The notes below the pieces were generated by a model that saw only the letters and a program-made list of their open reading frames with translations, was not told where the DNA came from and ran no database searches. Shown here piece by piece: positions 1-64,000 of a DNA stretch of 64,000 bases. The stretch covers positions 186,862-250,861 of the forward strand of contig CAZHTP010000001.1 of NCBI GenBank assembly GCA_964535655.1. Direction: 5' to 3'. Each line of letters opens with the position of its first letter. Position 1 is the stretch's first letter. The translations under genes were made by a program, and so were the position numbers. The stretch is from an uncultured Gammaproteobacteria bacterium (lineage in GTDB: Bacteria > Patescibacteriota > Microgenomatia > JALYQM01).

Positions 1-1365
1 TTAAAAGAAACTCTTTCTAACGCGATAGCGCAAGCGAGTGATGCTAAAGCATTTCTAAAAGATAGCAAGCCATTTCTTCAGGTGCTTCCTCAATTTTTAG
101 GCAAGGATAGGCCAGAAAAATATTTTATTATTTTTCAGAATGATAAGGAATTGCGGGCAACGGGTGGTTTTATAACCGCATTTGCTCGTTTAACTGTCGA
201 TAAGGGGCGGGTAGTTAATTCAGAATCAAGTGATATATACACTATTGATCAGCAGCTACGTTTAAAGCTTACTCCACCTGTTGCTATTCAAAAATATCTT
301 CCAGAGCCAAACGGTAAGGTAAAAACACATTGGCAGATTCGTGATTCAAACTTCTATCCAGATTTTAAGCAGTCAGCAGTACTCTTTGAAAATATATACG
401 AATACTTTAAGAGTAAAGAATATGTTTCTCTTACTGAAGACCAATTAAAGCAACGTCAAGCGACCGATTGGGATGGTCTAGTTGCTGTTGATACTAATGT
501 TGTTGAGCGGATAATTGGTATTCTTGGAGGGATAGAAGTAGATGGAGTTAAGTTTACTTCTGAAACTGATAAGCGGTGTAACTGTCCTAATGTTGTCTAT
601 GAGCTTGAGTCATATGCTGAGGGACAGGCTCGTGGAAATTCAGAACGTAAAGCATTGATTGGTAATTTAATGCAGGAAATTCTTTTACAATCATTTAAAC
701 AGGAAGATAAAATTCCTGCACTTGCTAACGAAGCGATTCGGTTAATGAATGAAAAGCATGTACAAGTCTACATGCACGAACCTAAGCTCCAACAGACTGT
801 TGAGAATTTAGACTGGGCTGGACGTATCGCTTCTGCTGAAAATCCAACAAAATTTAAGTACGAAGAGGGGAAATGGGACTATTGGCTTTGGAATGAATCT
901 AATTTTGCTAGTAAAAAAGCAAATCTTTATATAAGGCATGTTTCTAATCACCAATATGATGTTGCCGGTGATGGTACCACTACTGTTACTGCAACGGAGA
1001 CTGTTTCTAATCCTCAGCGGAATGATTATTGGTTGAATGCGTTATATCGTGCTTATTTCCGCGTTTATGTGCCTCCAGGTTCAGAACTCATCAAGGCTGA
1101 AGGATCTAGGGATCAAGTGCAGGTTACCAAAGAACAGGGCAAAACTATGTTTGACGGTTTTTATGAGTTGAAGCCGCAACAAGATCCTCCTGCAAAGGTA
1201 ACGTTAAAATATCGCTTGCCGTTTAAGCTTAAGAAAGGTGACGTGTATAAAGGTTTGTATCAAAAGCAAGCGGGAACAACTGGATTTGAATATACTATTA
1301 AAGGGCTTGGTGACGAAATAAAATTCGATTTAAATCAAGATCGATCAATTCAAGTTCAGCTCTAA
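1..1365 (+). CDS. DUF4012-family protein (5' end outside the window; ORF track start at 82 is GTG, but the frame is open from nt 1)
   Basis: Frame 1 has no stop from nt 1 to 1365. Motifs FIIFQNDKELRATGGF..AFA and a downstream D/W/Y-rich region are typical of DUF4012 proteins, which are common in CPR/Gram-positive genomes. A hairpin terminator follows. Confidence 0.6.
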   Translation, partial: LKETLSNAIAQASDAKAFLKDSKPFLQVLPQFLGKDRPEKYFIIFQNDKELRATGGFITAFARLTVDKGRVVNSESSDIYTIDQQLRLKLTPPVAIQKYLPEPNGKVKTHWQIRDSNFYPDFKQSAVLFENIYEYFKSKEYVSLTEDQLKQRQATDWDGLVAVDTNVVERIIGILGGIEVDGVKFTSETDKRCNCPNVVYELESYAEGQARGNSERKALIGNLMQEILLQSFKQEDKIPALANEAIRLMNEKHVQVYMHEPKLQQTVENLDWAGRIASAENPTKFKYEEGKWDYWLWNESNFASKKANLYIRHVSNHQYDVAGDGTTTVTATETVSNPQRNDYWLNALYRAYFRVYVPPGSELIKAEGSRDQVQVTKEQGKTMFDGFYELKPQQDPPAKVTLKYRLPFKLKKGDVYKGLYQKQAGTTGFEYTIKGLGDEIKFDLNQDRSIQVQL

Positions 1366-1385
1366 CTGTTTCTTGATATTTTTTA

Positions 1386-1416
1386 AGGACCTTGAAGTAA
1401 TTTGAGGTCCTTTTTG
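1386..1416 (+). terminator. Rho-independent terminator after the DUF4012 gene
   Basis: Inverted repeat AGGACCT / AGGTCCT separated by about 12 nt, followed by TTTTTGTT. Confidence 0.6.
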
Positions 1417-1431
1417 TTGATATAATTAGGT

Positions 1432-2085
1432 ATGTCAAAGTCATTCGTTTTAGATTGTGTGGTTTTAAAGAGGTTTGATTTAGGAGAAGCTGATCGGGTG
1501 TTGACTGTTTTTTCGCGAGAATTAGGTAAGGTGTCGGTTATTGCAAAAGGGGTTCGTCGGATAGTTTCACGAAAAGCAGGGAGTGTTGAAATTGGGAATA
1601 ACAGTCGTATTTTTGTGTTTGAAGGTAAGAATTTCTTTATTTTACAGGAAGTGAAAGTGTTGCATGCTTTTTTAACTTTAGGAACTCAGTTACCGATTTT
1701 TAAATATGGTTATTATGTTCTTGAGTTAGTTGATAGACTTACTCAGCCTGAAGAGCAGAATGAAAGTGTGTATCGTCTTTTAGTGGAAATATTAAAAATA
1801 CTTAATGCTAACCCGCGTAAGATTTTTATACGGGCTTTTGAGATGAAAATTTTGCATCGGTTGGGGTTTTTAACTGTAGATACACAGGCGGGCTCCATTT
1901 CCGGTTCGGAATTTCTAGATGATGAGTCGCTTGATCTATTGATTCATTTACAAGAGGACGGATGGGCAGTGATTGCGGGTATGGGGATGTCTGAGGATAG
2001 TTCGTTTCGGTTGGAGCAGTTTTTGAAGTTTAGGCTTGAGATGATTATTGAGCGGGAATTGAAGAGTTTGTATTATTTTGATTAA
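1432..2085 (+). CDS. recO: DNA repair protein RecO
   Basis: 217 aa. The N-terminal OB-fold pattern (VLKRFDLGEADRVLTVFSRELGKVSVIAKGVRR) is characteristic of RecO. Confidence 0.7.
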   Translation: MSKSFVLDCVVLKRFDLGEADRVLTVFSRELGKVSVIAKGVRRIVSRKAGSVEIGNNSRIFVFEGKNFFILQEVKVLHAFLTLGTQLPIFKYGYYVLELVDRLTQPEEQNESVYRLLVEILKILNANPRKIFIRAFEMKILHRLGFLTVDTQAGSISGSEFLDDESLDLLIHLQEDGWAVIAGMGMSEDSSFRLEQFLKFRLEMIIERELKSLYYFD

Positions 2086-2126: not shown

Positions 2127-2155
2127 TGCTGGATATGTGGTTGAGGCGGTATAAT
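2127..2155 (+). promoter_or_regulatory. Sigma-70-like promoter (TTGCTG, 18 nt, TATAAT) ending 8 nt before the glyQS ATG; the mRNA is leaderless
   Basis: TATAAT at 2150-2155, ATG at 2164, no Shine-Dalgarno sequence. Confidence 0.45.
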
Positions 2156-2163
2156 TTGCTGAT

Positions 2164-3552
2164 ATGGCTGAACAATCACTTACTGATAAAATAATAGCAC
2201 TTTGTAAAAGACGGGGATTTGTCTATCCTTCTTCTGAAATTTATGGCGGTTTAGCGAATAGCTATGACTACGGGCCAATGGGTGCGGCACTTTTACGTAA
2301 TATTCGTAATTTATGGTGGAAAAACTTTATTCAAATGCGTCCGGATATGGTCGGTTTGGATTCTTCAATAATTCTGCATCCTAAGGTATGGAAAGCTTCC
2401 GGGCATGTCGATACGTTTTCTGATGCGCTGATTGATTGTAAGAATTGTCAATTGCGCACACGTGCAGATCACTTAATAGAAGATTTTTTCGAAAAAGGAC
2501 AGGAATCTATTAAAGTTGAAGGGAAAACGGACGCACAGATGGACGAGATAGTTGCTCAAAATAAAATTTCCTGTCCAAATTGTGGTGAGTTTGCTTGGAC
2601 AAACATTCGTAAGTTTAATTTATTATTTGAGACCAATATTGGTATTGTTCCTGAATCGGAATCGAAAGCGTATCTTCGCGGGGAAACAGCACAAGGCATT
2701 TTTGTTTCATTTAAGAATATTATTGACTCAACTCGTGTTAAGTTTCCTTTCGGAGTAGGGCAAATTGGAAAAAGTTTCCGCAATGAAATTACCAAGGGCA
2801 ATTTTATTTTTCGCACATTAGAATTTGAACAAGCTGAAATTGAATATTTCTTTAATCCTAAGAAAACTGAATGGGAGCCAGTGTTTGAATCGTGGAAAAG
2901 TGCAATGTGGGACTTTCTCACTGAGAGCATGGGTATCCGTCCAGAAAATTTGCGTTGGCGAGAACATGGTGATGAAGAACGAAGTTTTTATAGTAAGCGA
3001 ACTGAAGATCTTGAATATAATTTTCCTTGGGGGTTTAAAGAGTTGTGGGGGATAGCTTACCGAACTGATTATGACCTAAATCAACATCAAAAGTTTTCTG
3101 GTAAGGATCTTACGGTTTTGGACACGGAAACAAATGAGAAATTCCTTCCTCATGTTATCGAGCCGGCGGTAGGAGTTACCCGCTTATTCTTTATGCTTTT
3201 GCTTGATTCTTTTGTAGAAGAAGGAGAGGGTGATTCTGCTCGATCGTATCTTAGATTACCAAAAGAGTTTGCACCATATCGAGTTGCTGTCTTTCCGTTG
3301 GTTGCGAATAAGCCACACTTAATCGAAAAAGCAGAAGAATTGTATCGCTTACTTTCAGCGGAATATGCTGTTGCGTGGGATGATAGAGGAAATATTGGGA
3401 AGCGATACCGTGCCCAGGATGAAATTGGTACTCCTTTCTGTGTAACTGTTGACTATCAAACACTTGAAGACGGTACTGTTACTATTCGTAATCGTGATAC
3501 CATGGAACAAGAGCGAGTGAAGATTGAGGGAGTAGCACAATTTATTGCATAA
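2164..3552 (+). CDS. glyQS: Glycine--tRNA ligase (dimeric class II GlyQS type)
   Basis: 462 aa. N-terminus RRGFVYPSSEIYGGLANSYDYGPMG and class II motifs. Confidence 0.9.
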   Translation: MAEQSLTDKIIALCKRRGFVYPSSEIYGGLANSYDYGPMGAALLRNIRNLWWKNFIQMRPDMVGLDSSIILHPKVWKASGHVDTFSDALIDCKNCQLRTRADHLIEDFFEKGQESIKVEGKTDAQMDEIVAQNKISCPNCGEFAWTNIRKFNLLFETNIGIVPESESKAYLRGETAQGIFVSFKNIIDSTRVKFPFGVGQIGKSFRNEITKGNFIFRTLEFEQAEIEYFFNPKKTEWEPVFESWKSAMWDFLTESMGIRPENLRWREHGDEERSFYSKRTEDLEYNFPWGFKELWGIAYRTDYDLNQHQKFSGKDLTVLDTETNEKFLPHVIEPAVGVTRLFFMLLLDSFVEEGEGDSARSYLRLPKEFAPYRVAVFPLVANKPHLIEKAEELYRLLSAEYAVAWDDRGNIGKRYRAQDEIGTPFCVTVDYQTLEDGTVTIRNRDTMEQERVKIEGVAQFIA

Positions 3553-4011: not shown

Positions 4012-4882
4012 TCCGCTGCCCCTTTCTATGTCCTTCTGCAATCAAAATAGCACCGATAATAACTGCTCCACCAAGCGCTTTAATTGGCATCATTTTTTCT
4101 CCTCCTAGAGTCCAGGCAAAAAAAGCAGCACTTATTGGTTCGAGTACGCCAAAAATTGAAACAGTCATAGGACTGATATATTTTTGAGATGTCGTTTGTA
4201 AAATGTATGCGACGACTGACGGAAAAATTGCTAAATAGACCATTTCGTAAAGTGAATTTGTTCCACTTATAGTCAATGGTGCGTGCATTAATAAAACGGT
4301 AATAAAGGTTGTAATTGTCAAAAAGAGGAATTGTTGAAAGCAAAGAATCAAGGCATCTGCCCGCTGTTTCAAGTAATAATCAACGAGCAAATATTGCCCG
4401 GCGATTGCAAAGGCAGCTAGAGCCGTTACGCTATCACCAAGTCCGATTTGACCAACGCCTCCCGTAATTATATACAGTCCTGTAGTTGCCATAATTACGG
4501 AAATAATTCGTTGCTTCGTAATTTTGGATTTATAAATTATGGCTGTTACGATAGGGATAATAATTATATACAGTGAGGTGATGAAACCTGAATTCGATGC
4601 ACTAACATATACGAGCCCAATTGTTTGCGGTATGTAGAGTAGCCATAGAATTAATCCTAAATGTAATCCGCGTTGTAGCTTTACAAAGGGATTCTTTTTA
4701 AGAAGTATCAGAATAAAACCCATTATTCCTGTCGCAATGAGAAATCGATACAAGACCAACGTGACGGGGTGAATACCACTTAGAGAATCTTTTATGACAA
4801 AATAGGTCGACCCCCAGATTAAAAAGGCAATAATAATTGCCATATGAGCTAACATTATTTTTCGCTGTTTTTTCTCAAGCAT
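3998..4882 (-). CDS. DMT (EamA-like) family transporter
   Basis: 294 aa with about 10 predicted TM helices and two EamA-like halves. Its 3' end overlaps the GNAT gene by 14 nt (convergent). Confidence 0.7.
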   Translation of the reverse strand: MLEKKQRKIMLAHMAIIIAFLIWGSTYFVIKDSLSGIHPVTLVLYRFLIATGIMGFILILLKKNPFVKLQRGLHLGLILWLLYIPQTIGLVYVSASNSGFITSLYIIIIPIVTAIIYKSKITKQRIISVIMATTGLYIITGGVGQIGLGDSVTALAAFAIAGQYLLVDYYLKQRADALILCFQQFLFLTITTFITVLLMHAPLTISGTNSLYEMVYLAIFPSVVAYILQTTSQKYISPMTVSIFGVLEPISAAFFAWTLGGEKMMPIKALGGAVIIGAILIAEGHRKGQRIKSS

Positions 4883-4904
4883 CTCTTTAATGGTACATCA
4901 AATT

Positions 4905-4913
4905 TGGTATACT
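4905..4913 (+). promoter_or_regulatory. Extended -10 TGGTATACT, 8 nt upstream of the rsmH ATG (leaderless)
   Basis: The ORF-track start at 4904 (TTG) lies inside this box. The first ATG after it is at 4922. Confidence 0.45.
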
Positions 4914-4921
4914 TTGTGCAG

Positions 4922-5818
4922 ATGAAGTATGTCCATATTCCCGTTCTACTTGCAGAAGTACTTGCTGCGCTACGCATTATGACCGGTCAAAAGTATATTG
5001 ATTGTACTTTTGGAGGGGGCGGTTACGCTCGGGGGATTGCTGAAAAGGGTGGTATCGTGCTGGGACTTGATGTAGACGAAGACGCGGTTGCTCGAGTAAT
5101 TTCTGGAGAAGTTGTAATTCCAAATGTTCGAGTAATCAGGGCGAATTTTGAAAGTGTATACGAGTTTGCCCAGAAAGAGAATTTCTTGCCAGTTCACGGC
5201 ATAGTTTTTGATTTGGGAGTGTCAAGCTTTCAGATTGATACCCCAGAGAAAGGATTTTCTTTTCTAAAGACCGGACCTTTGGATATGCGGATGGATCGTA
5301 CCTTAGGAATCTCGGCGGGGAGACTATTAGATATTCTCGATGAAAGATCTTTATCAGAGTTAATATACAAGTTTAGCGATGAAATGCACGCTAAAAAGAT
5401 CGCTCGCGAGATAGTTTCAGAGCGTGAAAAACATAAGAATGAAACTGGAGCTTACTGGGAAAACAGAACTACAACTGATCTGTCGGGATTTGTAGAAAAG
5501 GTGGTTGGTGGAAGAAGAGATCGTATTCACCCTGCGACTCGTTTATTTCAGGCCTTACGTATGGCTGTTAACGACGAAGCAGGTGCTTTGGATAGAGGAT
5601 TGCGTGGCGCCTTTGATTGTCTAGTAGCGCGCGGAAGGCTTGTTGTTGTAACTTTTCATTCGGGTGAAGACCGAATTGTGAAATCATTTATGGAATCAAA
5701 AATGGAGGATAGATCTGGTACGATAATTGGAGATATAACACTTGCTAATGAACGGGAAGTGGCAGCAAATCCGCGTTCACGAAGCGCTAAGATGCGTGTT
5801 ATAGAAAAGATATATTAA
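4922..5818 (+). CDS. rsmH: 16S rRNA (cytosine1402-N4)-methyltransferase RsmH/MraW
   Basis: MKYVHIPVLL..YIDCTFGGGGYARGI. Classic first gene of a dcw cluster. Confidence 0.9.
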   Translation: MKYVHIPVLLAEVLAALRIMTGQKYIDCTFGGGGYARGIAEKGGIVLGLDVDEDAVARVISGEVVIPNVRVIRANFESVYEFAQKENFLPVHGIVFDLGVSSFQIDTPEKGFSFLKTGPLDMRMDRTLGISAGRLLDILDERSLSELIYKFSDEMHAKKIAREIVSEREKHKNETGAYWENRTTTDLSGFVEKVVGGRRDRIHPATRLFQALRMAVNDEAGALDRGLRGAFDCLVARGRLVVVTFHSGEDRIVKSFMESKMEDRSGTIIGDITLANEREVAANPRSRSAKMRVIEKIY

Positions 5819-7975: not shown

Positions 7976-8001
7976 GGAAAGAAATTGGTATAATGCTTGT
8001 T

Positions 8002-9615
8002 ATGCAATTACATAAACTATTATCTTCCCTCAATTATGAGGTATTAACTGGTTCACTCGAAAACGAAGTAGGGTCGATTCATTTTGATTCTCGAGAAATT
8101 AAGAACCGCGATATTTTTGTCGCTCGAAAAGGGTTAACTATTGATTCTCATTCATTTATTGATGATGTGATATCTTTGCAACCTTGTGCTATCGTTGGGC
8201 AGGATTTTACCGAAGATCAGATCCTAAAAGCCAGGGATACTAATGTGACTTTAATTAAAGTAGATGATTCTGCTTATGTTGGAGGCGTAATGGTTGCCGC
8301 GTGGTATGATTTTCCATTTACTAAAATGCATATGATTGGAGTTACGGGTACTGATGGTAAGACTACTACCTCTAATTTAATCTATCACTTATTAAAATCG
8401 GCTGGTAAAAAAGTGGGGGTGATTTCAACTTTATCTGCTTGTATTTTTGATGGAACCCGCGAAGTAGAAAATGATACCGGATTTCATGTTACTACCCCAG
8501 ATGTGTTAGAAGTTCAAAAATATCTTGCTGATATGGTCGCAAAGGGCTGCGAATATGCCGTTATTGAATGTACTTCTCATGCATTTGCTCAGGAACGAGT
8601 AGCGGGAATTAACTTTAACGTGGGAGTAGTAACTAACATAACTCATGAACACCTTGATTATCACAAGACTTTAGAACGCTATATTTTAGCTAAATCGCTT
8701 TTGTTTCGTATTGATACTTCACTGCCGCAATCTGCTTATACTGAACGTATTGCTGTAATTAATCAGGACGATCGTGCATGGGAATATCTGTTACCATATA
8801 CAAAAACATGGTCGCGAAAAGGGTACGGTTATAATGATTTTGCTGAATATCATATCATTTCAGATGAACAGCTTTCTTCCGGTATTTCCTATCTTTTTCA
8901 AAAAGAGAATACGATGGGAAATCCTATTGAGCAGATTAAAGTTCAGCTGTCTCTATTTGGTAGATATAATATTGCTAACTCGATCGCAGCAATTGCTACA
9001 TTGTCAGAGTTGGGTTTTCCCGATACTGTTAGTGCTTTGAATATAAAAAAGTTTATGGGTTTAGTGGGTAGGTTTGAGCGTTTTTCTACAAAATCTCATG
9101 GGTTGGTTGTCGTTGATTTTGCGCATACACCACATGCTCTCGAAGAGATTTTAAGATTAGCTCATTCATTATCGTCCGGAAAAATAACTGTTGTGTTTGG
9201 CTGTGCAGGGTTACGTGATGTAGAAAAGCGCTATTTAATGGGAGAAATTGCTGGTCAGCATGCCGATGTGACCATTATTACGGTAGAGGATCCTCGCACT
9301 GAGAAGCTTGATGATATCAATGGACGAATTATCAAAGGTCTGAGCGATACTGGAGCGGAGGAATATCCGGTTGAAAAAATTGAACAGTTTTCGTCAAAAG
9401 TTGTTCGCGAAAACCTCTCTGAACACTTCCCCCTTTATGTGAGGATTGATGATCGAAGAAAGGCCATTGAAAGCGCGATTCGAATTTCGAGTGAACAAGA
9501 TATTGTCTTGATCTGCGGTAAAGGCCACGAAAAGAGTATGAATTATGGTAATGGTGAAGTGCCTTGGAGCGACCAGCAAGTAGTGGTTGAGATGCTGAAA
9601 AATATCGAAGGATAG
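8002..9615 (+). CDS. murE: UDP-N-acetylmuramoyl-L-alanyl-D-glutamate--2,6-diaminopimelate ligase (MurE)
   Basis: Mur ligase P-loop GVTGTDGKTTT; C-terminal GKGHE and an EDPR variant of the DNPR motif. The ORF-track ATG at 7993 overlaps the TATAAT box at 7989-7994; the ATG at 8002 is 7 nt downstream (leaderless). Confidence 0.85.
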   Translation: MQLHKLLSSLNYEVLTGSLENEVGSIHFDSREIKNRDIFVARKGLTIDSHSFIDDVISLQPCAIVGQDFTEDQILKARDTNVTLIKVDDSAYVGGVMVAAWYDFPFTKMHMIGVTGTDGKTTTSNLIYHLLKSAGKKVGVISTLSACIFDGTREVENDTGFHVTTPDVLEVQKYLADMVAKGCEYAVIECTSHAFAQERVAGINFNVGVVTNITHEHLDYHKTLERYILAKSLLFRIDTSLPQSAYTERIAVINQDDRAWEYLLPYTKTWSRKGYGYNDFAEYHIISDEQLSSGISYLFQKENTMGNPIEQIKVQLSLFGRYNIANSIAAIATLSELGFPDTVSALNIKKFMGLVGRFERFSTKSHGLVVVDFAHTPHALEEILRLAHSLSSGKITVVFGCAGLRDVEKRYLMGEIAGQHADVTIITVEDPRTEKLDDINGRIIKGLSDTGAEEYPVEKIEQFSSKVVRENLSEHFPLYVRIDDRRKAIESAIRISSEQDIVLICGKGHEKSMNYGNGEVPWSDQQVVVEMLKNIEG

Positions 9616-15559: not shown

Positions 15560-15574
15560 TTCTATCATGAATAT

Positions 15575-15967
15575 ATGCGTCGACGATTTAGACATCATAC
15601 TGCTTCCATAAAGAATGCCTTAAATGGTATCTTTTGGGTATTTTATACTCAGCCCAATTTTCAATTGCACGTTCTGGCAGGGTTTTTAATATTAGTTGCG
15701 GCATATATTTTAGCTATTCCTTTTGGAGAGTGCGCAATTCTTATCTTAACGGTGGTGTTTGTGTTAGTATGTGAGCTTATCAATACTGCTCTTGAGGCGT
15801 TTGTCGATTTACTTAGTTCAGAATGGCAGGGCCAAGCTAAAGTAGCTAAGGACGTATCCGCAGGAATGGTGCTTGTTGCTGCAATTGGCGCAGTGATAGT
15901 AGGATTATTTATTTTTGTTCCTCATGTTGTGCAGTTAGTTTATTATTTTTGGTATATGGATTTATAG
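15575..15967 (+). CDS. dgkA: Diacylglycerol/undecaprenol kinase DgkA family
   Basis: 130 aa with 3 TM helices and the ELINTALEAFVDL..AKD motif. Confidence 0.75.
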   Translation: MRRRFRHHTASIKNALNGIFWVFYTQPNFQLHVLAGFLILVAAYILAIPFGECAILILTVVFVLVCELINTALEAFVDLLSSEWQGQAKVAKDVSAGMVLVAAIGAVIVGLFIFVPHVVQLVYYFWYMDL

Positions 15968-16964: not shown

Positions 16965-16973
16965 TGGTATAGT
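16965..16973 (+). promoter_or_regulatory. Extended -10 TGGTATAGT, 9 nt upstream of the ftsW ATG
   Basis: Sits in the 18-nt gap after the mraY stop; no SD. Confidence 0.4.
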
Positions 16974-16982
16974 AGTACCATC

Positions 16983-18145: not shown

Positions 18146-18154
18146 TGATACAAT
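18146..18154 (+). promoter_or_regulatory. Extended -10 TGATACAAT, 6 nt upstream of the murG ATG
   Basis: TACAAT at 18149-18154, ATG at 18161. Confidence 0.4.
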
Positions 18155-18160
18155 GCACCT

Positions 18161-19258: not shown

Positions 19259-19280
19259 TAAAAATGCTATAGTTTAGGAT

Positions 19281-46381: not shown

Positions 46382-46425
46382 AGCTCTAGTAATATATTTA
46401 GACCTATAGTATAATCTTTCGCATT

Positions 46426-47898
46426 ATGAAAGATGAACAATCTAAAAGTCTAGGTGACAGTGTATATCATGATCTCGCAGAGCCACTTTGGAAGAATAGT
46501 TTTGCGATCGGATTTCGGAGAATGGAGCAAATACTTGCTGATGCTCAGATTAATACTGACCAGGTATTGCAGCAGCAACGAGCGCTTTTTGTTACAGCGT
46601 TCAACAGTAATCATTCTCAGGAGGGGTTTTGCGGTAGAGCGCAGGTTGTTTTCCGAAATGTTAGTGAGAGACTAACGCAGCTTGATAGGCACGATCTGGT
46701 TGAGGAGCTTGTAGCTGTTGCCAAGAGAGCCTCGGAAAGATCTAATCTTTTGTTGCATGATTTGGCTGAAAGTGGAGGAACTTTCCATGCTACTGAACAA
46801 TCATTTATAACTGACGGGACCATTATGATAGCTGGAGAAGCGATGGAAGCATTTGCTTCAACTCCTGACTACTTTTCGGCTATGGCAAAACTCTTTGGTT
46901 GTACAGAAGAAGTTGCACCTATTTTGAAAGATTCATTTTTTAAGGGGGCACATTTAGATGAAGATGATATTCAAAATATTGTTAATGCACAGCAGGCTGG
47001 GGATGATACAGTTGATATTCTCGTAGGTTTTTTACTTAGACAGCAGAGAAAATATCGATTCCCTACAACTCAGGATTATGAGTTTGTACCTGGAAAATCT
47101 GACGAATATAATCAGCAACGAAAGATAAAAGCAATTCGTGATGCTGCATATTGTGTTGGCTCAGTGATACGGGTTGTGAGTATCCTGTGCCAAGACGAAA
47201 TCTCGGCAATCTCAGATATCTCCGCTTGTGAGGACCCTATAGCTTTGTTCTTGAAATGTACTAGCAAAGAATATACTGCTGAGCAAGTAGATGTAATTAA
47301 AAGGATTGCTCTTGCCCATTGTACTCATGGTTTAAATTCCGGAGAGTTGACGGCTCGGTTATCTGGTTCTGTACGTACAACATTTCCACGCGGTATCATG
47401 GCGAGTTTACTTGTGCGCAGTGGTATTGTGCATGCTGGTGCGTTGAGTGAATGTATGATGCAAACGTCAGACTACTTGCAATCAGAGCTATCGGCGGAGG
47501 AATTTGTTAGCCTACTATTTTCCTCTCACGGAAAGTTATATGGATTTGGCCATCGGATACATAAGATCGATGCTTCGGATTCATCGGAGGTGCTTGGACG
47601 GGATCCTCGTGTACATTTTTACATCTCCTGTGCTAGAGAGGCATTCCCTGATAAAGCAGATGTTATTGATCGGCTTGTTGAATATGCAAAGGCCATACGT
47701 AAGAATAAGCCTACGCTTGGTGCTAATACCGACTTTGGGGCAAGCGTCTTATTTAATTGCCTTGATCTTTCGCCTCAAGTGGCAAGCGGGTTTTTTACTG
47801 CTTTTCGAATCCCTGGGATTTGCGCGAATATTGTGAATGAGTTACAGATTAAGTCTAATTCTAGAAAACCACCATTCCCTCCAGTGTTACCATATTAA
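46426..47898 (+). CDS. Citrate synthase-fold family protein, divergent, with an N-terminal extension of about 100 aa
   Basis: GFGHRIHK...DPRV (citrate synthase His box, with about 9 inserted residues) and a C-terminal block ANTDFGASVLFNCLDLS..FTAFRIPGICANIVNE that lines up with PNVDFYSGIILKAMGIP..FAMARTVGWIAHWSE of GltA. The start is 7-10 nt after TATAGTATAAT (leaderless). Confidence 0.5.
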   Translation: MKDEQSKSLGDSVYHDLAEPLWKNSFAIGFRRMEQILADAQINTDQVLQQQRALFVTAFNSNHSQEGFCGRAQVVFRNVSERLTQLDRHDLVEELVAVAKRASERSNLLLHDLAESGGTFHATEQSFITDGTIMIAGEAMEAFASTPDYFSAMAKLFGCTEEVAPILKDSFFKGAHLDEDDIQNIVNAQQAGDDTVDILVGFLLRQQRKYRFPTTQDYEFVPGKSDEYNQQRKIKAIRDAAYCVGSVIRVVSILCQDEISAISDISACEDPIALFLKCTSKEYTAEQVDVIKRIALAHCTHGLNSGELTARLSGSVRTTFPRGIMASLLVRSGIVHAGALSECMMQTSDYLQSELSAEEFVSLLFSSHGKLYGFGHRIHKIDASDSSEVLGRDPRVHFYISCAREAFPDKADVIDRLVEYAKAIRKNKPTLGANTDFGASVLFNCLDLSPQVASGFFTAFRIPGICANIVNELQIKSNSRKPPFPPVLPY

Positions 47899-48465: not shown

Positions 48466-49166
48466 ACTGTTTGATTAGCATAGCGCAATAGTGCTGCGGC
48501 TATCAATATATCATCGGCATCATTAATGTTTATTGATCGTCTTTTAGGCATAACAAAACCTCGCGAATCTTTTCCAAATAGGCTTCCGTCTAAAATTACA
48601 TCCGCTCGTGTAACATAGACAGCGCCATTTCTTCTGTACACTGTGGGAATTGCCTGGCGTGGCAGAGGGGAATCTTCTTCACCAGGCATAAGAGGGATAA
48701 CGCGCCTATCTTCCGAAAGATATTTTAAGCGCATAGGGTGGCCGGTTTCGTCTGCTACCATACTTACTACAGAATCAGCCTCAGTTGCATCCATAAGCTC
48801 TAGAGCGCTATTAATATCAAAAGCAGTTCGAAGTGGGCTGGTAGCTCTCATTGTTACAACCAAGTCATAGTGTTCACCTTGATTTCTCAGCGAGGTGACA
48901 ACCTGCCTTATCACGGGAAATGTGGGTTGACCGTCGTAGGATAATTCCGGTGGGTGTCGGTTAGTACGGGCACCATATTGTTGTGCGACTTCTTCAATTT
49001 GATCATTGTCGGTAGTGACCATGACTGTACTCAGCCTTCGGCATTGTTGCGCGGCTTCGATGGTATATGCGAGCATAGGCCTACCTTCTAAGAGTATAAT
49101 GTTCTTACCCTCGACTCCTTTTGATCCGCCTCGGGTTGGAATGAGACCTAATATGCGTTGTTCCAT
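48462..49166 (-). CDS. Acylneuraminate/nonulosonate cytidylyltransferase family (CMP-NeuAc synthetase-like)
   Basis: ILGLIPTRGGSKGVEGKNI N-terminal motif of the CTP_transf_3 family. The ORF track extends to 49202, but an extended -10 TGGTATACT (forward 49175-49183) lies 8 nt upstream of the ATG at 49166, so I take 49166 as the leaderless start. Confidence 0.65.
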   Translation of the reverse strand: MEQRILGLIPTRGGSKGVEGKNIILLEGRPMLAYTIEAAQQCRRLSTVMVTTDNDQIEEVAQQYGARTNRHPPELSYDGQPTFPVIRQVVTSLRNQGEHYDLVVTMRATSPLRTAFDINSALELMDATEADSVVSMVADETGHPMRLKYLSEDRRVIPLMPGEEDSPLPRQAIPTVYRRNGAVYVTRADVILDGSLFGKDSRGFVMPKRRSININDADDILIAAALLRYANQTV

Positions 49167-49260
49167 TTGGGCAGAGTATACCACTGCTTTCTCCCATTGC
49201 AAAGGTTTTTTGTGCGTGATACAATTTTTTGTATAGATTTAATCGGATTTTACGTGTTCG

Positions 49261-54013: not shown

Positions 54014-56566
54014 TTACCTTACATTAACGGTAATTTCTTTAGTTGATGTAACATTCTTGTTATCTGTTGCTTCGATTCTAATTTTGTGAGTTCCAGCCTG
54101 CTCAGACTTGAAGTTTACTTGTGTGCTGACGGGAGAGGAGTTGGAACTTCTCAACATGTTGTAATCATCAATATATATCTTCATATTAGCAATCTGTGCA
54201 TCGCCCTTAGGATTGGCATCTGCTGTTAAGTTGAATGTAAACGGTACATTTGCCTGATCTGGAATGTCGCGGATGATGATATCTGGAGCATCTTTTGGAT
54301 TGCCACCAATTGATGAATATCCTCCGAAGGCTCCTCCGTTAGGGCAGTCACCCTGGCAAACACCTGGCTTATTAAATAACTTAAGGTATGGGTCGGTTAG
54401 AATTGCGAACTGTTTATCTTCGGCATCGCAACTGTCGTGTTCAACATCATTGGTTCCTTTACATACGCGAACATTTTGGTATGTAATATCATTCGGTTGT
54501 GGTTCGGTACCCTTAATGAATATCTCAGGGCGAGTGGCGGTTGTGCCGTTACCGGGTCGCATACCGGTTTTTGCATCAATGGCGAGTGGTCCGTTAATTT
54601 CGTCGGGCTTTTTGTACCACTCATCAGGTTTATTATCCACTAACTGGTGCATTATTTTGTTCCAGATTGGTGTTGCACCGGTAACACCAGAAGCAATTGA
54701 CTGGTCCATAACTGCATTATTATTGTTACCGACCCAGGTTCCAACTACATAGGAAGGTGTGTATCCAAATGCCCAGTTGTCTCTCTTTTGGTCGGTTGTT
54801 CCTGTTTTGACTGCGATGTGTTTCCCTGCAATATAAAGCAAACTACGTGGGCCGAAGGCAGGAATGCGTGCATTATCGTCGGACAAGATATCGGATATAA
54901 GATAGGCTATCTCTGGCTTGAATATGCGTTTTCCTGATGAAGGTTGGAATTCTTCTAATACCTTACCTTTTGCGTCGGTGACCTTAATTACTGACACAAC
55001 GTCTTGTTTAACACCTTCATTCGCAAATACAGCATATGCAGAGGTGAGATCAAGAAGCGAGGTTTCTCGACCTCCAAGCGTAAGCGAAAGTCCAACATTT
55101 TGCATTGCTTGTGTTGTTGGTTCCCAGTTTGATATCCCCATTTCATAGGCAGTTTTCATGGTGTCTTTGATGCCATTAGTTGCCAGGGCTTTTACCGCGG
55201 GGACGTTTAAGGATGATCCTAAAGCTGTTCTTGTTTGAACCGGTCCGCGATATTTTCCATCGTAGTTAACTGGTTTATATGGATCTTGACCCGGTCCTGC
55301 GTCAAACTCGGTTTGTACATCTAACCACATGGTTGCGGGCGTATACCCTTTAGTGAATCCAACCGCGTAAGTTATAGGCTTAGTAGCAGATCCTGGTTGC
55401 CTATTACGGGTGGTTACGTTTACTTGGCCGTCGTAATCTTTAGCGAAATAGTCTTTTGATCCAACCATAGCCAAAATTTCGCCGGTTTTAGGATTTAGCA
55501 CAACTGCTGCTCCATTACCTACTTTAGCTTTTGCTAATTTATCTACTTCAGTTCTGACAATTTCCTGGACCTTATTTTGTAAATCTAGGTCAAGAGAGGT
55601 GTAAATGCGTAATCCGCCGGAGGCCACCACTTCTTTTCCGTATTTCTGCTCCATTAGATCTTTTACATAAAGCGTAAAATGAGGTGCTTGTATATCAATT
55701 TTTTGATCGGCGAATTTTATAGAATCCAGCTCTCCTAGCGAAGCTGTTTCTTGCTCTTTCGTGATGTGTTTTTCTTCTCGCATGCGGCGTAAAACATATT
55801 TTGCGCGATTTTTATAGGCATCAGGATATTCTCCAAAAGGCGAGTAATAGGTAGGAGATTGAGGTAACCCCGCTAAAATAGCACTTTCAGTTAGAGTTAA
55901 ATCTTTGGCTGGTTTTCCAAAATAGGTTTGTGCAGCAGTTTCAACGCCATAGGTTGTTCCTCCATACGGAATTTCATTTAAGTACATTTGAAGTACTTCG
56001 TCTTTACTGAATCGTTTATCTACTTGAATAGCTAAAATCAATTCACGCAATTTACGAGTTGGCGTTCGTTCTCCTCCAACTAGCGTGTTTTTGACAAGCT
56101 GCTGTGTAATAGAGGAGGCACCAATTAATCGATGATACCGAATTAAGTCGTATAGAATACGAAAATATCCTTCAACGGCAAACCCTTGATGTTTATAAAA
56201 ATCTTTATCTTCAGTGTCAATTGTAGCGTTAATGAGATCTTTGGGGATTTTGTCAAGGGTAACCAGTTCACGATTCTGTTTATCATAGACACTATAGAGC
56301 GTTTTTCCGTTGCGGTCCATGATTTTTGTGGCTTGGTCGACTGAACGATCTTTTAACGTGGTTGGACTGGGAAGATCCCTGGCAAACCAGGCAAAAACTA
56401 TTATAATTACTATAACACCTAGTAAGAAAAGTCCAAAAAATACACTGATTAGTACTGCGGTGATAGTTAGAATTTTTTGTTTTGTCGTGAGTTCTACTTT
56501 GTCTTTTGGGCCTTTTTTATCGAGTTTGGCGCGTCTTGAGGAAAATCCATTTTTTAAATCTTGCAT
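54014..56566 (-). CDS. Class A penicillin-binding protein (bifunctional GT51 transglycosylase/transpeptidase) with a C-terminal extension
   Basis: GT51 motifs EDKDFYKHQG and GASSITQQL; transpeptidase motifs SATKP, SLN, KTGTT; an extra C-terminal tail of about 150 aa. Confidence 0.9.
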   Translation of the reverse strand: MQDLKNGFSSRRAKLDKKGPKDKVELTTKQKILTITAVLISVFFGLFLLGVIVIIIVFAWFARDLPSPTTLKDRSVDQATKIMDRNGKTLYSVYDKQNRELVTLDKIPKDLINATIDTEDKDFYKHQGFAVEGYFRILYDLIRYHRLIGASSITQQLVKNTLVGGERTPTRKLRELILAIQVDKRFSKDEVLQMYLNEIPYGGTTYGVETAAQTYFGKPAKDLTLTESAILAGLPQSPTYYSPFGEYPDAYKNRAKYVLRRMREEKHITKEQETASLGELDSIKFADQKIDIQAPHFTLYVKDLMEQKYGKEVVASGGLRIYTSLDLDLQNKVQEIVRTEVDKLAKAKVGNGAAVVLNPKTGEILAMVGSKDYFAKDYDGQVNVTTRNRQPGSATKPITYAVGFTKGYTPATMWLDVQTEFDAGPGQDPYKPVNYDGKYRGPVQTRTALGSSLNVPAVKALATNGIKDTMKTAYEMGISNWEPTTQAMQNVGLSLTLGGRETSLLDLTSAYAVFANEGVKQDVVSVIKVTDAKGKVLEEFQPSSGKRIFKPEIAYLISDILSDDNARIPAFGPRSLLYIAGKHIAVKTGTTDQKRDNWAFGYTPSYVVGTWVGNNNNAVMDQSIASGVTGATPIWNKIMHQLVDNKPDEWYKKPDEINGPLAIDAKTGMRPGNGTTATRPEIFIKGTEPQPNDITYQNVRVCKGTNDVEHDSCDAEDKQFAILTDPYLKLFNKPGVCQGDCPNGGAFGGYSSIGGNPKDAPDIIIRDIPDQANVPFTFNLTADANPKGDAQIANMKIYIDDYNMLRSSNSSPVSTQVNFKSEQAGTHKIRIEATDNKNVTSTKEITVNVR

Positions 56567-56651
56567 TGATTCATTATATCAAACAGCAAGGATACAATTG
56601 CAAGTGAATAACTGCTTTACCGCTTGGTAGGGTCTTGTTATAATTTCCTTT

Positions 56652-57857
56652 ATGGACGACTTGCACACCCTCCTTGTGCGTAATGTAGATAGTATTTATC
56701 CTTCACGGGAGTTTCTTGAAAAGAGACTTGCAGAAGGGAAGCCTCTTCGCGTCTATTTGGGCGTAGATCCGACTGGTGCTTTGCAACTTCACCACTCGGT
56801 TCCGCTTTTTAAATTAAGGCATTTTCAAAAATTAGGTCATAAAATTTATTTGTTAATAGGAAGTTTTACGGCAATGATTGGGGATCCAACAGGCAAGTCA
56901 GCAGTCCGTGTTCCATTAACAAAAGAGCAAGTTATGGAAAATGCTAAAAATTACGCCGATCTTGCTTCTAAAATTTTAGATTTTCAAAACAATCCTCCTG
57001 AAGTAGTCTATAACGGAGATTGGCTGGAAAAGCTTACCTTTAAAGAAGTGATTGAACTTGCCTCTCATTTTACCGTACAGCAAATGATCGAACGCGATAT
57101 GTTTCAGAAAAGATTACAAAATGGATTACCGATCAGTTTGCACGAGTTTTTATATCCTTTAATGCAAGGCTACGACAGCGTTGTTCTCGATGTTGACGTT
57201 GAAGTAGGGGGGACTGATCAGACTTTTAACATGCTTGCCGGTAGAAAACTAATAGAACAATATTCTCACAAAGAGAAAGCCGTTGTAACAAATCCGCTTA
57301 TTACCGACTCTCAAGGTAAGAAAATGAGTACGAGTGATGGTACAGGTATCTCCTTAAATGTTTCTTCTATCGATCTCTATGGAAAAGTAATGTCATTACC
57401 CGATGACTTTATTTTGAATTTATTTATCATGTGTACTGAATTAGAAACAGAAAAGATCGATTCAATCAGGGACGCAATGGAGAAGGGTGAAAATCCTCTT
57501 ACTTATAAAAAACAGTTGGCTTATGAATTAACTCGCAGGTTCCATTCTGAGGATGCTGCCAAAGAAGCACAATCCTTTTTCGAATCTACCGTACAGCATG
57601 ACGAATTACCCACAGATATTCCAGAATGGATTGTCGAGCCTGGTTTGTACGAGATAACTGACTTATTAATGGATACTGGGCTGGTTACAAGTAAGAGCGA
57701 AGCAAAAAGAATGGTCTTTCAAGGTGGCGTTACCCTTCTTCACGACATTGAAGAAAAACGCATCGACGACGTACATACATTAGTTGAAGTAAAAAATGGA
57801 ATGATAATCAAGCTCGGTAAACGTCGATTTTTGAAGTTACAATTAGATACTAAATAA
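56652..57857 (+). CDS. tyrS: Tyrosine--tRNA ligase
   Basis: GVDPTGALQLHH (HIGH-like), KMSTS (KMSKS), C-terminal S4 domain. The extended -10 TGTTATAAT lies 7 nt before the ATG. Confidence 0.85.
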   Translation: MDDLHTLLVRNVDSIYPSREFLEKRLAEGKPLRVYLGVDPTGALQLHHSVPLFKLRHFQKLGHKIYLLIGSFTAMIGDPTGKSAVRVPLTKEQVMENAKNYADLASKILDFQNNPPEVVYNGDWLEKLTFKEVIELASHFTVQQMIERDMFQKRLQNGLPISLHEFLYPLMQGYDSVVLDVDVEVGGTDQTFNMLAGRKLIEQYSHKEKAVVTNPLITDSQGKKMSTSDGTGISLNVSSIDLYGKVMSLPDDFILNLFIMCTELETEKIDSIRDAMEKGENPLTYKKQLAYELTRRFHSEDAAKEAQSFFESTVQHDELPTDIPEWIVEPGLYEITDLLMDTGLVTSKSEAKRMVFQGGVTLLHDIEEKRIDDVHTLVEVKNGMIIKLGKRRFLKLQLDTK

Positions 57858-61921: not shown

Positions 61922-62622
61922 TGAATCTTTATTTTATAACGCTATTTCCTGAAGTTATAAATGCAACTATGTTAACGAGCATTATCGGTCGAGCGCATGA
62001 CAATGCTCTTTTTCATTTTAGTTGTTATAATCCAAGAGACTTTTCCCCAGATAAGCATAAAAACGTTGACGATCATCCTTATGGTGGAGGTAAAGGGATG
62101 GTCCTTAGGGCAGATGTCCTTGAGCTTACATTAAAGCAGGCATTTGCCGATGCTGGGCTTAGTTTAACCGACTATGACCGAGCTAAAGTTAGCATTGTTG
62201 CTACTGTGGCTGGCGGGGATCTTTTTTCCCAAAGAATAGCTGAACAGTATTCCTCCTTGGAGCATTTATTTATTATTTGTGGACATTATGAAGGAATAGA
62301 TCAGCGGTTTATTGATTTGTATTGTGATAATGAGATAAGTATAGGGAAATATGTTTTAACGGGAGGAGAGTTGGCAGCTGTAGTTATCGCTGAAGCAGTA
62401 CTTCGTTTGCTCCCTGGAGTATTAGGATCTGATGAATCTTCAGAAGAGGAATCATACAGTATCTTTGATAACGATCAGCAATTGGTTGAATATCCTCACT
62501 ATACTCGCCCAGCAGAATTTAATGGTGTAGCCGTACCGAACGTACTCGTGAATGGTAATCATAAAGAGATCCAAAAATGGAGATTACAGCAGTCACGAGT
62601 ACGTTCCCATAAACAAAAGTAG
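61921..62622 (+). CDS. trmD: tRNA (guanine37-N1)-methyltransferase TrmD
   Basis: SPOUT knot motifs (HPYGGGKGMVL, ICGHYEGIDQR, VLTGGELAA). rimM is absent upstream. Confidence 0.9.
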   Translation: MNLYFITLFPEVINATMLTSIIGRAHDNALFHFSCYNPRDFSPDKHKNVDDHPYGGGKGMVLRADVLELTLKQAFADAGLSLTDYDRAKVSIVATVAGGDLFSQRIAEQYSSLEHLFIICGHYEGIDQRFIDLYCDNEISIGKYVLTGGELAAVVIAEAVLRLLPGVLGSDESSEEESYSIFDNDQQLVEYPHYTRPAEFNGVAVPNVLVNGNHKEIQKWRLQQSRVRSHKQK

Positions 62623-62629
62623 TATTTTT

Positions 62630-63427
62630 TTATGGTGTAGCGGTTGGTTTCACCGTAGCTTTTGCTGAACTACTTTGGTTAGCAGCTTCAGTTGGGACAG
62701 GGGTTGGTGATGTTTCTGGTGAAGCCTTAGACTCACTGTTTCCTTCTATTTGGTACGAATTATATGTTTGTAGCAAATCATATGTTTTTCGGTCTTCTGC
62801 GGTTAAGGTGGGAATTTCTTCTGTTTCATCTTTAGGGGTAGGTGGTAGTTGAAGATAAAAAGCTGACATGTTTGAGCTCACAGTTACACCGCCATCTTCA
62901 GACTGGGTACCACCTGTATTTAAGTTTACCGATTCCATATTAATTAATCGTTTTGCTTTATATACCTTACCCATGAAAGTCTTAATGGCTTCGTAGTTGC
63001 CTCGGTATGCGAGTGTAAAAGAAATGGATGGACCTGTTTTAGCATTAGCTGCTGTTATTGACGTGTCGTTCACTAATTTTCCTGGAGTGAGCTGGATTCC
63101 CTGAATCTGAACATCACTTTCCTGTGCAATTTTTTGAAGCTGGATAATAAGCGCTGGAACCTCTTTTTGGTTGGGAAGAGCGATCGTTAGAGCCGAGAGT
63201 TGGGCTACTAAATCGGTTTTGTTACTTTCGAGTTGAGTCAGATCTGCAAGCTTTTTGTCTAACTTTACTTTGCGTTCTTCTTCTGCCGCTTTACGTGTTT
63301 GTAGTTCCTGGATTTCTCCAATCTTTGGCTGAATAAAGAGAAGACCAATTCCTACTACTACAATGATTGCTATCACAGGAAGGACGTAATATACACTCAT
63401 TTTCATTTTACTATTCGCGTTTTTCAT
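62630..63427 (-). CDS. pilO: Type IV pilus assembly protein PilO-like
   Basis: N-terminal TM helix, coiled-coil, then a periplasmic domain; S/T/P-rich C-terminus. Overlaps pilN by 4 nt. Confidence 0.55.
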   Translation of the reverse strand: MKNANSKMKMSVYYVLPVIAIIVVVGIGLLFIQPKIGEIQELQTRKAAEEERKVKLDKKLADLTQLESNKTDLVAQLSALTIALPNQKEVPALIIQLQKIAQESDVQIQGIQLTPGKLVNDTSITAANAKTGPSISFTLAYRGNYEAIKTFMGKVYKAKRLINMESVNLNTGGTQSEDGGVTVSSNMSAFYLQLPPTPKDETEEIPTLTAEDRKTYDLLQTYNSYQIEGNSESKASPETSPTPVPTEAANQSSSAKATVKPTATP

Positions 63428-63987
63428 TGTGCTCCCCCTGAGGTTTTTACTAACGTCATTGAAATATTGAACTGTAAATCTCCATCTTTTGTTGTACTGA
63501 CACTGCCTAAATTTATATCCGTAAAATATTTTGCACCTTTTTCTTTATCTAAAACATTCTTTACATAGTTATAAAAACTTTCAGAATTGTTAGCTTTTCC
63601 GTTGAGAACTATTTTGTCAGTTTTATCTATAGCGACGTCTGAGATCGTAATTCCGTCAGGTACAATGCTTTGAATATTTTCAATAACTGTTTTATAATCT
63701 TTCGCAGCGGAAAGGGTATTCATTGATGTCGTTATTTTAGCTTTAATTGCCCGCTGTGAAAGTTCGGTATCTGCAAAACCGAGCACTTGGGTTTTCTTGC
63801 TATCATTTTCTTGTACAACTTTTTTATAACTTTCGTTTAAAGTGATCTGGATTGTAAAGACGGCAATGACGGCAATAATGCCGATTACAAAAATAGCCAT
63901 ACTGACAATAGTTAGTAATTTTTGCAACTTGCTTTCACGCTCTTCTTTAAGAGTTATATCTGGTAAGAGGTTAATTTCTTTGGCCAT
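63424..63987 (-). CDS. pilN: Type IV pilus assembly protein PilN-like
   Basis: N-terminal INLLP motif followed by a single TM helix. pilM is expected just beyond the window edge. Confidence 0.6.
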   Translation of the reverse strand: MAKEINLLPDITLKEERESKLQKLLTIVSMAIFVIGIIAVIAVFTIQITLNESYKKVVQENDSKKTQVLGFADTELSQRAIKAKITTSMNTLSAAKDYKTVIENIQSIVPDGITISDVAIDKTDKIVLNGKANNSESFYNYVKNVLDKEKGAKYFTDINLGSVSTTKDGDLQFNISMTLVKTSGGAQ

Positions 63988-64000
63988 ACTTTTTTAGATC

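Follow-up and report, generated by a model that had tools for sequence, protein, structure and literature searches.

Do many of the genes in the window, i.e. the whole stretch of 64,000 nucleotides analyzed here (contig CAZHTP010000001.1, positions 186,862 to 250,861 of the forward strand), give rise to messengers which begin at the start codon itself? The question is raised by the -10 promoter boxes lying immediately before the ATG of many of these genes. In a first reading of this DNA based on the letters only (the sequence-only reading), 14 genes were listed as carrying a TGnTA(T/C)A(A/C/G)T box which ends 6-10 nt ahead of the ATG, the interval being free of any Shine-Dalgarno (SD) sequence, and it was proposed that their transcripts start at the ATG or a few nucleotides before it. 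Given the spacing of the boxes, the promoter marks accompanying them and their conservation in related genomes, this proposal is the best-supported reading of the locus. About 30% of the genes and approximately half of those heading transcription units very probably carry a sigma-70-type promoter, the -10 box of which ends 6-10 nt before the ATG and would yield a leaderless mRNA.

The process which can be envisaged is as follows. The RNA polymerase holoenzyme would recognize an extended -10 box (often TGnTAYAAT), the -35 element being weak or absent and often located in the last codons of the upstream gene. Transcription would start approximately 7 nt past the -10 hexamer, on the first base of the AUG or 1-3 nt earlier, giving an mRNA devoid of any 5' untranslated region. 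By analogy with known systems, this mRNA would be decoded by a 70S ribosome together with the initiator tRNA, directly on the 5'-terminal AUG and without SD/anti-SD pairing. Leaderless mRNAs bind 70S ribosomes with fMet-tRNA directly; neither the SD sequence nor bS1 is needed, and IF3 disfavours them.

Boxes adjoining the start codons

The gap was counted in bases from the last T of the -10 hexamer to the A of the ATG, neither of these being included. Thirteen of the 14 boxes listed in the sequence-only reading were found base by base at gaps of 6-10, followed by the expected ATG (Table 1), and the hexamers seen in these 13 genes are TATAAT, TACAAT, TATAGT or TATACT. The complete TGnTA(T/C)A(A/C/G)T pattern was found in nine of the 14 genes; in glyQS, ftsA, rplU and the citrate-synthase-like gene, the hexamers are good ones but are preceded by CGG, TTT, AGG and TAG, respectively, instead of a TG extension. 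The box attributed to the metalloprotease-like gene (34146/34154) was not found, since the sequence at this position is GTGATATGC and scores 0.2 bits; in this 392-amino-acid gene, a promoter close to the consensus extends over 34125-34153 (Table 1), and the in-frame ATG at 34163, 9 nt past its box, is a likelier candidate for a leaderless start than that at 34154. Further cases which had escaped the first reading are recO, the DAGK-family (diacylglycerol kinase) gene, the signal peptidase gene, the gene starting at 33982 (-), lgt, and the Clp ATPase and PBP1A (penicillin-binding protein 1A) genes, along with a weak one at 4882 (-).

The absence of any SD sequence between the box and the ATG holds for all the box-adjacent genes: an SD match at a gap of 3-13 was found in 0 of the 20-22 genes, the AGGT in rplU being only an apparent exception because it overlaps the box itself. 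The start codon is ATG in all 22 of them. Three classes of starts were counted in the window, namely approximately 20-22 of the leaderless type, 13-17 led by an SD sequence, and the rest showing neither signal. The leaderless-type genes include approximately 15 of the approximately 28 genes heading a separate or divergent unit.

Table 1. Start-adjacent -10 boxes in the window, with three leadered genes for contrast; box ends are given for the 13 boxes of the sequence-only reading which were verified
Gene	Window positions	Strand	Promoter elements	Box end	Gap (nt)	ATG	Remarks
recO	1418..1434	+	TGATATAAT		5	1432	RecO family match; absent from the first list
glyQS	2147..2166	+	cGGTATAAT	2155	8	2164	
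294-amino-acid gene divergent from rsmH	4880..4898	-	TACCAT		7	4882	weak box (4.8 bits, sub-threshold)
rsmH	4905..4924	+	TGGTATACT	4913	8	4922	mechanical TTG start 4904 inside box
murE	7986..8004	+	TGGTATAAT	7994	7	8002	ATG 7993 is the 'ATG' of TATAATG
DAGK-family gene	15560..15577	+	TATCAT		6	15575	
ftsW	16965..16985	+	TGGTATAGT	16973	9	16983	box right behind mraY stop codon
murG	18146..18163	+	TGATACAAT	18154	6	18161	
ftsQ-like	19265..19283	+	TGCTATAGT	19273	7	19281	
ftsA	20239..20257	+	tttTATAGT	20247	7	20255	mechanical TTG start 20219 over-extended
rplU	24479..24518	+	TTGACG, 17-nt spacer, TACAAT	24507	8	24516	
416-amino-acid methyltransferase-like gene	24818..24835	+	TGGTACAAT	24826	6	24833	
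signal peptidase I (lepB)	29045..29085	-	TTGCAA, 18-nt spacer, TACAAT		8	29047	
205-amino-acid gene	33980..34021	-	TTGAAA, 18-nt spacer, TAAAAT		9	33982	
392-amino-acid gene ('metalloprotease-like')	34125..34165	+	TTGACA, 17-nt spacer, TG-a-TATGCT			34154	box adjoins ATG 34154
lgt	35526..35547	+	TGTTATAAT		10	35545	
RluA/RluD-family pseudouridine synthase	37557..37574	+	TGGTATAAT	37565	6	37572	
Clp-family AAA ATPase	44226..44243	-	TACACT		6	44228	
citrate-synthase-like gene	46407..46428	+	tagTATAAT	46415	10	46426	
cytidylyltransferase (PseF/NeuA-like)	49164..49183	-	TGGTATACT	49175	8	49166	mechanical TTG start 49202 over-extended
PBP1A	56564..56581	-	TGATATAAT		6	56566	divergent from tyrS
tyrS	56636..56654	+	TGTTATAAT	56644	7	56652	
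rpsB (contrast)	38371..38481	+	TGGTATACT			38479	approximately 93-nt leader, SD AAGGAG
parB (contrast)	26438..26493	+	TGATATACT			26491	approximately 38-nt leader, SD AAGGAG
thrS (contrast)	44402..44623	+				44621	T-box-like leader (sub-threshold), terminator hairpin, SD AAGGAGG

When the gaps were pooled over the window and 11 related loci, values of 6, 7 and 8 nt were obtained 22, 21 and 17 times, respectively, versus 0-5 times for each value from 11 to 40 nt. With a gap of 6, the A of the ATG is the seventh base past the hexamer, and the modal distance between the -10 element and the transcription start was found to be 7 bp in a promoter survey in which RNA-seq-inferred starts of Nanosynbacter were used (PMC12641261). 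In the leaderless genes of Mycobacterium tuberculosis, the box is located 6-8 nt before the start (PMC6028130). Two divergent gene pairs in the window, 4882 (-)/4922 (+) and 56566 (-)/56652 (+), are separated by spacers of only 39 and 85 nt, which leave no room for leaders, and a box adjoins each of the four ATGs.

The distance between the motif and the ATG was compared with that in shuffled controls, as had been suggested in the sequence-only reading, and an enrichment was found to occur at 5-10 nt. TGNTAYAVT occurs 29 times in the window versus 13.9 +/- 3.4 times in shuffles, and is followed by an ATG at a gap of 5-10 in 13 cases versus 1.5 +/- 1.2 (maximum 6 in 200 dinucleotide shuffles; z = 9.5), only one case each being found at gaps of 15-20 and 25-30. 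In a gene-centred test, the first ATG of each long open reading frame (ORF) was used in order to avoid picking starts by the motif, and an external Escherichia coli-type sigma-70 -10 matrix was applied with a threshold of at least 5.4 bits and a gap of 5-10. Boxes were detected in 18 of the 62 genes (29%) versus 42 of 2011 other ATGs (2.1%; Fisher p = 1e-14), and at a gap of 20-25 in only two of the 62 genes. When the identical pipeline was run on 50 kb around the dcw cluster of E. coli K-12, boxes were found in 0 of 39 genes. Words of five letters were also counted in the 20 nt preceding the starts without any prior hypothesis, and only two families were found to be enriched: the SD words (AAGGA, AGGAG) and the -10 words (TATAA, GTATA, ATAAT, ATAGT, GGTAT), versus SD words only in E. 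coli. The SD-frequency comparison also proposed in the first reading was less telling, as matches of at least 4 nt were found in 31% of the genes here versus 38% in E. coli (first-ATG rule), which is uninformative when taken alone.

A mere effect of composition, whereby AT-rich intergenic DNA beside the starts happens to resemble TATAAT, would be in keeping with the GC content of approximately 40%, with the lack of enrichment in a generic promoter scan (see below) and with the same lack for bare TAYAVT plus ATG over the window as a whole (29 versus 23.7 in shuffles), the signal emerging only around gene starts or with the TG extension as a requirement. Matrices with permuted columns and equal composition, however, detected boxes in 3.5 genes on average instead of 18, and 17-18 genes were reached only with column orders spelling TATAAT, so that AT-richness is not the cause. 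The gene-centred p value, the sharp peak at 6-8 nt, the E. coli control and the conservation between genomes likewise refute the idea of a chance resemblance, to which we assign a negligible probability.

The box-adjacent starts also give N-termini which fit the protein families. The residue at which the alignment begins and the corresponding position in the family model are 8 and 2 in GlyRS, 3 and 5 in RsmH, 1 and 1 in MurE, 2 and 5 in FtsA, 3 and 1 in L21, 3 and 6 in TyrS, 1 and 1 in Lgt, and 7 and 2 in PseF, and in the FtsA orthologues of five relatives, the box-adjacent ATG is the sole possible start. Since the family models align from the first residues and the FtsA orthologues have no other start candidate, the five ORF starts which had been suspected of being over-extended in the sequence-only reading (4904, 7993, 20219, 31411, and 49202) can be said to be so. 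Under the longest-ORF/first-start rule, at least ten starts in all are over-extended: 4904 (corrected to 4922), 7993 (8002), 20219 (20255), 26485 (26491), 31411 (31423), 39300 (39345), 40363 (40387), 49202 (49166), 50414 (50462), and 51504 (51522), those at 26485, 39300, 40363, 50414 and 51504 being additional to the five suspected.

Promoter elements versus ribosome-binding sites

The boxes are located where a ribosome-binding site would be expected, and they might consist of a TA-rich, non-SD ribosome-binding or translation-enhancing element carried by leadered mRNAs rather than a promoter, as in group B of the GeneMarkS-2 classification (e.g. Bacteroidetes). SD use is low in several relatives, and the ribosomes of the candidate phyla radiation (CPR) are atypical: they are reduced, with a short bS1, and the anti-SD sequence has been lost in part of the Parcubacteria (PMC9297842). 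The promoter marks were examined by comparing 62 boxes located near starts in the window and in eight relatives with 1770 equally good hexamers located elsewhere in the same DNA; neither of the marks had played any part in the selection of the boxes. A TG at -15/-14 was present in 40% of the start-proximal boxes versus 6% of the others (p = 1e-13), and a TTG at -35 with a 16-18 nt spacer in 42% versus 7% (p = 4e-14). When the 62 boxes were aligned on the hexamer, T and G occupied the two extended -10 positions in 61 and 60% of the cases, respectively, and a T-rich TTG signal emerged 22-24 nt upstream. In the window itself, 13 of the 22 boxes have the TG extension. This G-containing extension and the TTG at 16-18 nt are contacts of sigma-70 which play no role in ribosome binding.

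The same boxes also occur away from start codons. TGGTATACT lies approximately 100 nt before rpsB and TGATATACT 44 nt before parB, both of which are SD-led genes, TGATACAAT precedes infC, and TTGCTA-17-TAAAAT, the -10 element of which is preceded by TG, lies before the tRNA-Leu gene. The fact that identical boxes occur 40-100 nt upstream of SD-led genes indicates that they are promoter elements and not ribosome sites. A group B motif, which is not a promoter, precedes all the genes of an operon, the first as well as the internal ones (PMC6028130), whereas in the window no box was found before genes which overlap or nearly touch the gene upstream. Lastly, the independent enrichment of canonical SD words shows that the anti-SD sequence is in use. 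A translational element is very improbable in the light of these data.

The boxes are maintained in relatives despite the divergence of the surrounding DNA. Eleven related loci (L001-L011) belonging to Daviesbacteria, Gottesmanbacteria, CPR3 and unnamed relatives were compared, with 14-22 genes per locus; the FtsA identity decreases from 80 to 54% in L002-L008, which include Daviesbacteria and Gottesmanbacteria genomes. The closest genome representative is L001 (CAYOFQ010000001.1), a syntenic 1.57-Mb contig showing 72-76% DNA identity, and in this contig the boxes of ftsW, murG, ftsQ, ftsA, rplU, the methyltransferase gene and the signal peptidase gene are all kept, while the spacers around them have diverged. 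The gap has drifted from 9 to 6 in ftsW, where the box in L001 is TGCTATAGT, and from 6 to 7 in murG, remaining within the range. The murG box is also conserved in L002 and L003, and TGnTATAGT is present 6-7 nt upstream of ftsQ in L001, L002 and L003, the three loci with a recognizable orthologue. A -10 box lies 7-8 nt upstream of rplU in L001, L002, L006, L007, L008 and L010, twice with TTGAC at -35, and TATNAT or TATAAT 6-9 nt upstream of the DAGK-family gene in L001, L002, L004, L006 and L007; the signal peptidase I box is conserved in L001 and L004. Overall, the boxes of ftsW, murG, ftsQ, ftsA, rplU, the methyltransferase gene, lepB and the DAGK-family gene are retained in relatives with FtsA identities as low as approximately 55%, and their gaps vary only between 6 and 9 nt. 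Start-adjacent boxes are enriched in all 11 CPR loci, where they occur in 14-45% of the genes (74 of 272, or 27%, when pooled). In the AT-rich locus L011, the count was 0 of 18 genes under a GC-specific background and 3 of 18 under a uniform one, and boxes of the TAAAAT type were found at 6-8 nt.

Several points weigh against the leaderless reading. Where the transcripts begin and how ribosomes are recruited to them are inferred from the features of the DNA described above. Gaps of 9-10 (ftsW, lgt, the citrate-synthase-like gene, 33982, and 34163) imply leaders of 1-3 nt instead of none. A generic two-hexamer sigma-70 scan gave no enrichment (42, 55 and 44 sites versus averages of 54, 52 and 50 in shuffles); such a scan is unable to discriminate in DNA as AT-rich as this and was not counted as evidence, and the case rests on the position, the TG extension and the conservation of the boxes. 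The loci of the relatives were all taken from the dcw-rplU neighbourhood and the window comprises 62 genes, which means that the genome-wide percentages may differ from those given here. In addition, six boxes are located in spacers of 15-26 nt within co-directional arrays without any terminator, and these genes could be translated mainly from read-through polycistronic mRNAs, with leaderless transcripts making up a minor part.

This last point leads to the view that the boxes are real but auxiliary internal promoters, the clustered genes (murE, the DAGK-family gene, ftsW, murG, ftsQ, and the methyltransferase gene) being mostly expressed from polycistronic mRNAs and their ATGs read by coupling or re-initiation. 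The lack of terminator-like hairpins in the six spacers is consistent with it, as is the fact that many neighbouring genes overlap or are separated by 1-5 nt, which is a classic layout for translational coupling. The boxes at these very genes, however, along with their 6-9 nt spacing, are conserved although their flanks have diverged, which argues that they are under selection, and approximately 15 other boxes head units which are clearly separate or divergent. This view, which bears on the quantity of the leaderless transcripts and not on their existence, seems unlikely to us.

Leadered genes and isolated boxes

Genes with a classical leader exist side by side with those of the leaderless type, as stated in the sequence-only reading. 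In 13-17 genes, including rpsB, tsf, rpmA, rpsP, parB, thrS, recG and the gene of an MBL-fold (metallo-beta-lactamase fold) hydrolase, AAGGAG or GGAGG was found 4-9 nt upstream of the start. The genes showing neither signal, which begin 0-20 nt past the upstream gene or overlap it, suggest translational coupling.

Two of the leaders look regulatory, which would explain why the genes in question have kept them. That of rpsB weakly resembles the t44/rpsB-leader family (RF00127, E = 0.027), the similarity starting 3 nt past the TGGTATACT box, which fits the role of this box as the rpsB promoter. The thrS leader element begins directly after tRNA-Val (44318-44392); its match to the T-box model RF00230 amounts to 33.6 bits versus a gathering score of 93 (E = 1e-4) and is followed by a 20-bp terminator hairpin with a U run at 44553-44600. 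A T-box riboswitch of a divergent CPR type may be present here. At the gathering threshold, two tRNAs and nothing else were detected with Rfam in the window.

Other starts depart from the two main types. In the GTG-started infC ORF (49261), residue 19 is the first to be aligned with the IF-3 family model, and ATA GCT AAG AAA (IAKKFYRVNQFIRA) is present at 49300 with GAGGGAAAGG before it, which suggests that infC may have a non-AUG (AUA) start; its promoter TGATACAAT, at 49217-49225, leaves a leader of normal type. In E. coli, infC has an autoregulated AUU start. The mechanical start of pheS at 50414 falls inside the rplT terminator hairpin (50401-50434), while the PheS model fits the ATG at 50462; this ATG is located 14 nt past TGATATACT (50439-50447), and the intervening stretch contains GGAG, so that the leader is very short but still has an SD sequence. 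Upstream of ftsZ (window 22003-22103), TTGCAT-17-(TGt)TATTCT is located approximately 45 nt before the start, and relatives share the TGTTATTCT element; there is no SD sequence, and the leader ends with the pyrimidine-rich ...aaattttcct. This leadered but SD-less gene raises the possibility that a third mode of initiation may exist.

Two boxes do not adjoin any start. TGGTATAAT is located inside the 3'-terminal part of the preceding Mur ligase gene (window 13140-13175), 24 nt 5' of the next ATG (13173), and a box is found at a similar distance in L001 and, judging by the aligned position, in L002; this box is best described as a putative internal promoter with a leader of approximately 17 nt rather than a leaderless one. 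TGCTATACT, a perfect extended -10 box at 27405-27413 (-), is located near the 3' end of the gene 27356-28450 and aimed at the end of parB on the opposite strand, and could be either an antisense promoter or a chance match.

Lineage and comparison with known leaderless systems

The window contains 64 non-overlapping ORFs of at least 70 amino acids, 51 of which are on the + strand, has a GC content of 38-41% and reads cleanly with genetic code 11. Every 4-kb bin shows a positive GC skew (0.08-0.22), which, along with the orientation of the ORFs, amounts to a strong strand asymmetry; a Microgenomates genome has reportedly shown an unusual disparity of strand composition. Family models upheld the names of recO, glyQS, rsmH, murE, ftsW, ftsA, rplU, the RluA/RluD-family pseudouridine synthase, signal peptidase I, lgt, the Clp ATPase, the citrate-synthase-like gene, the PseF/NeuA-like cytidylyltransferase, PBP1A, tyrS, rpsB, tsf, rseP, pheS, pheT, recG, rpsP, thrS and infC. 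FtsA has thousands of homologues, and all the named ones among the best 120 belong to the CPR (Daviesbacteria, Gottesmanbacteria, CPR3, and 'Patescibacteria group'; 53-57% identity), while unnamed metagenomic relatives reach 61-93% identity. The gene order dcw-ftsZ-rodA-rplU-rpmA-parB-lepB is common to the window and CPR contigs. Judging from this one marker and the shared gene order, the window appears to come from a CPR/Patescibacteria bacterium related to Microgenomates. The record of L001 is labelled 'uncultured Gammaproteobacteria bacterium', yet this contig resembles CPR/Microgenomates in the affinities of its FtsA and in its gene order, and the label is probably a taxonomic error. The methyltransferase-like gene (approximately 400 amino acids; window 24833-26083) is inserted between rplU and rpmA, and this position is kept in L001-L005 and L007; in Firmicutes, this slot contains a small protease-like gene.

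Leaderless architecture has been demonstrated experimentally in Mycobacterium, Corynebacterium, Streptomyces and Deinococcus. The arrangement described here is a known design in a new lineage and not a new mechanism: it corresponds to group C of GeneMarkS-2, or the 'TA-led' genes of Zheng et al., in which a Pribnow box precedes the start by approximately 10 nt and SD sequences are used elsewhere (PMC6028130, PMC3160421). As in the group C Actinobacteria (M. tuberculosis, Streptomyces, and Corynebacterium), where a TANNNT box is located 6-8 nt before the start and only the remaining genes have an SD sequence, two motifs coexist in the window and in its relatives; approximately 25-50% of the transcription units are affected in group C (PMC6028130). 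The known code-11 genomes of this group are almost all high-GC (bioRxiv 10.1101/2022.07.25.500264), whereas the GC content is approximately 40% here, and instead of the degenerate TAnnnT of the high-GC phyla (PMC3160421), the window has complete TATAAT, TACAAT or TATAGT boxes, often with the TGn extension. Unlike those of the group C Actinobacteria, the starts concerned are all ATG.

In Deinococcus-Thermus (D. radiodurans, D. deserti, and T. thermophilus), -10 boxes likewise adjoin approximately 30% of the ORFs (PMC12340547, PMC3160421), which can be compared with 29% in the window and 27% in the pooled loci; the proportion in Deinococcota has been called the highest among the phyla surveyed (PMC12340547). 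That phylum is unrelated to the present one, and its leaderless genes have been proven by differential RNA sequencing and reporters whereas those of the window are predicted from the DNA; in addition, many boxes in the window are found in dense co-directional clusters, where the coding sequence of the preceding gene contains the -35 region. The group C Mollicutes resemble the present lineage in having small, low-GC genomes, and 30-60% of their transcripts have been predicted to be leaderless (bioRxiv 10.1101/2022.07.25.500264), but they belong to another phylum and use code 4 instead of 11. The boxes are also similar to extended -10 (TGn) sigma-70 promoters, where TG occupies -15/-14, separated from the hexamer by one base, and the -35 element is weak or absent; this is a class of promoter and not of gene architecture, and says nothing about the length of the leader.

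In the sequence-only reading, leaderless mRNAs were said to be known in some CPR bacteria; no paper supporting this remark and no published report of leaderless mRNAs in CPR was found in a literature search whose coverage excluded most subscription journals, which makes it weak evidence. It is conceivable, although we put it forward only tentatively, that the Microgenomates-related branch of the CPR is a previously unrecognized major leaderless lineage, with low-GC, code-11 genomes in which approximately 27-30% of the genes (about half of the transcription units) have extended -10 promoters abutting the AUG, even in dense clusters (e.g. dcw), almost all the genes of which would have their own start-adjacent promoter.

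If this is true, the few lineages known to lean on leaderless mRNAs would be joined by uncultured, ultra-small bacteria, which bears on the way translation is initiated by their reduced ribosomes and on the question whether the leaderless mode is ancestral or favoured by streamlining. Should the architecture extend to CPR in general, it could be related to the reduction of their ribosomes (the short bS1 and the loss of the anti-SD sequence in some Parcubacteria), and many annotations of CPR metagenome-assembled genomes would have wrong N-termini. Gene finders trained on SD models can be expected to make start errors of the kind listed above in thousands of CPR genomes assembled from metagenomes. 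The promoter-plus-ATG unit of approximately 40 nt would also provide a design rule for gene expression in the few culturable CPR bacteria.

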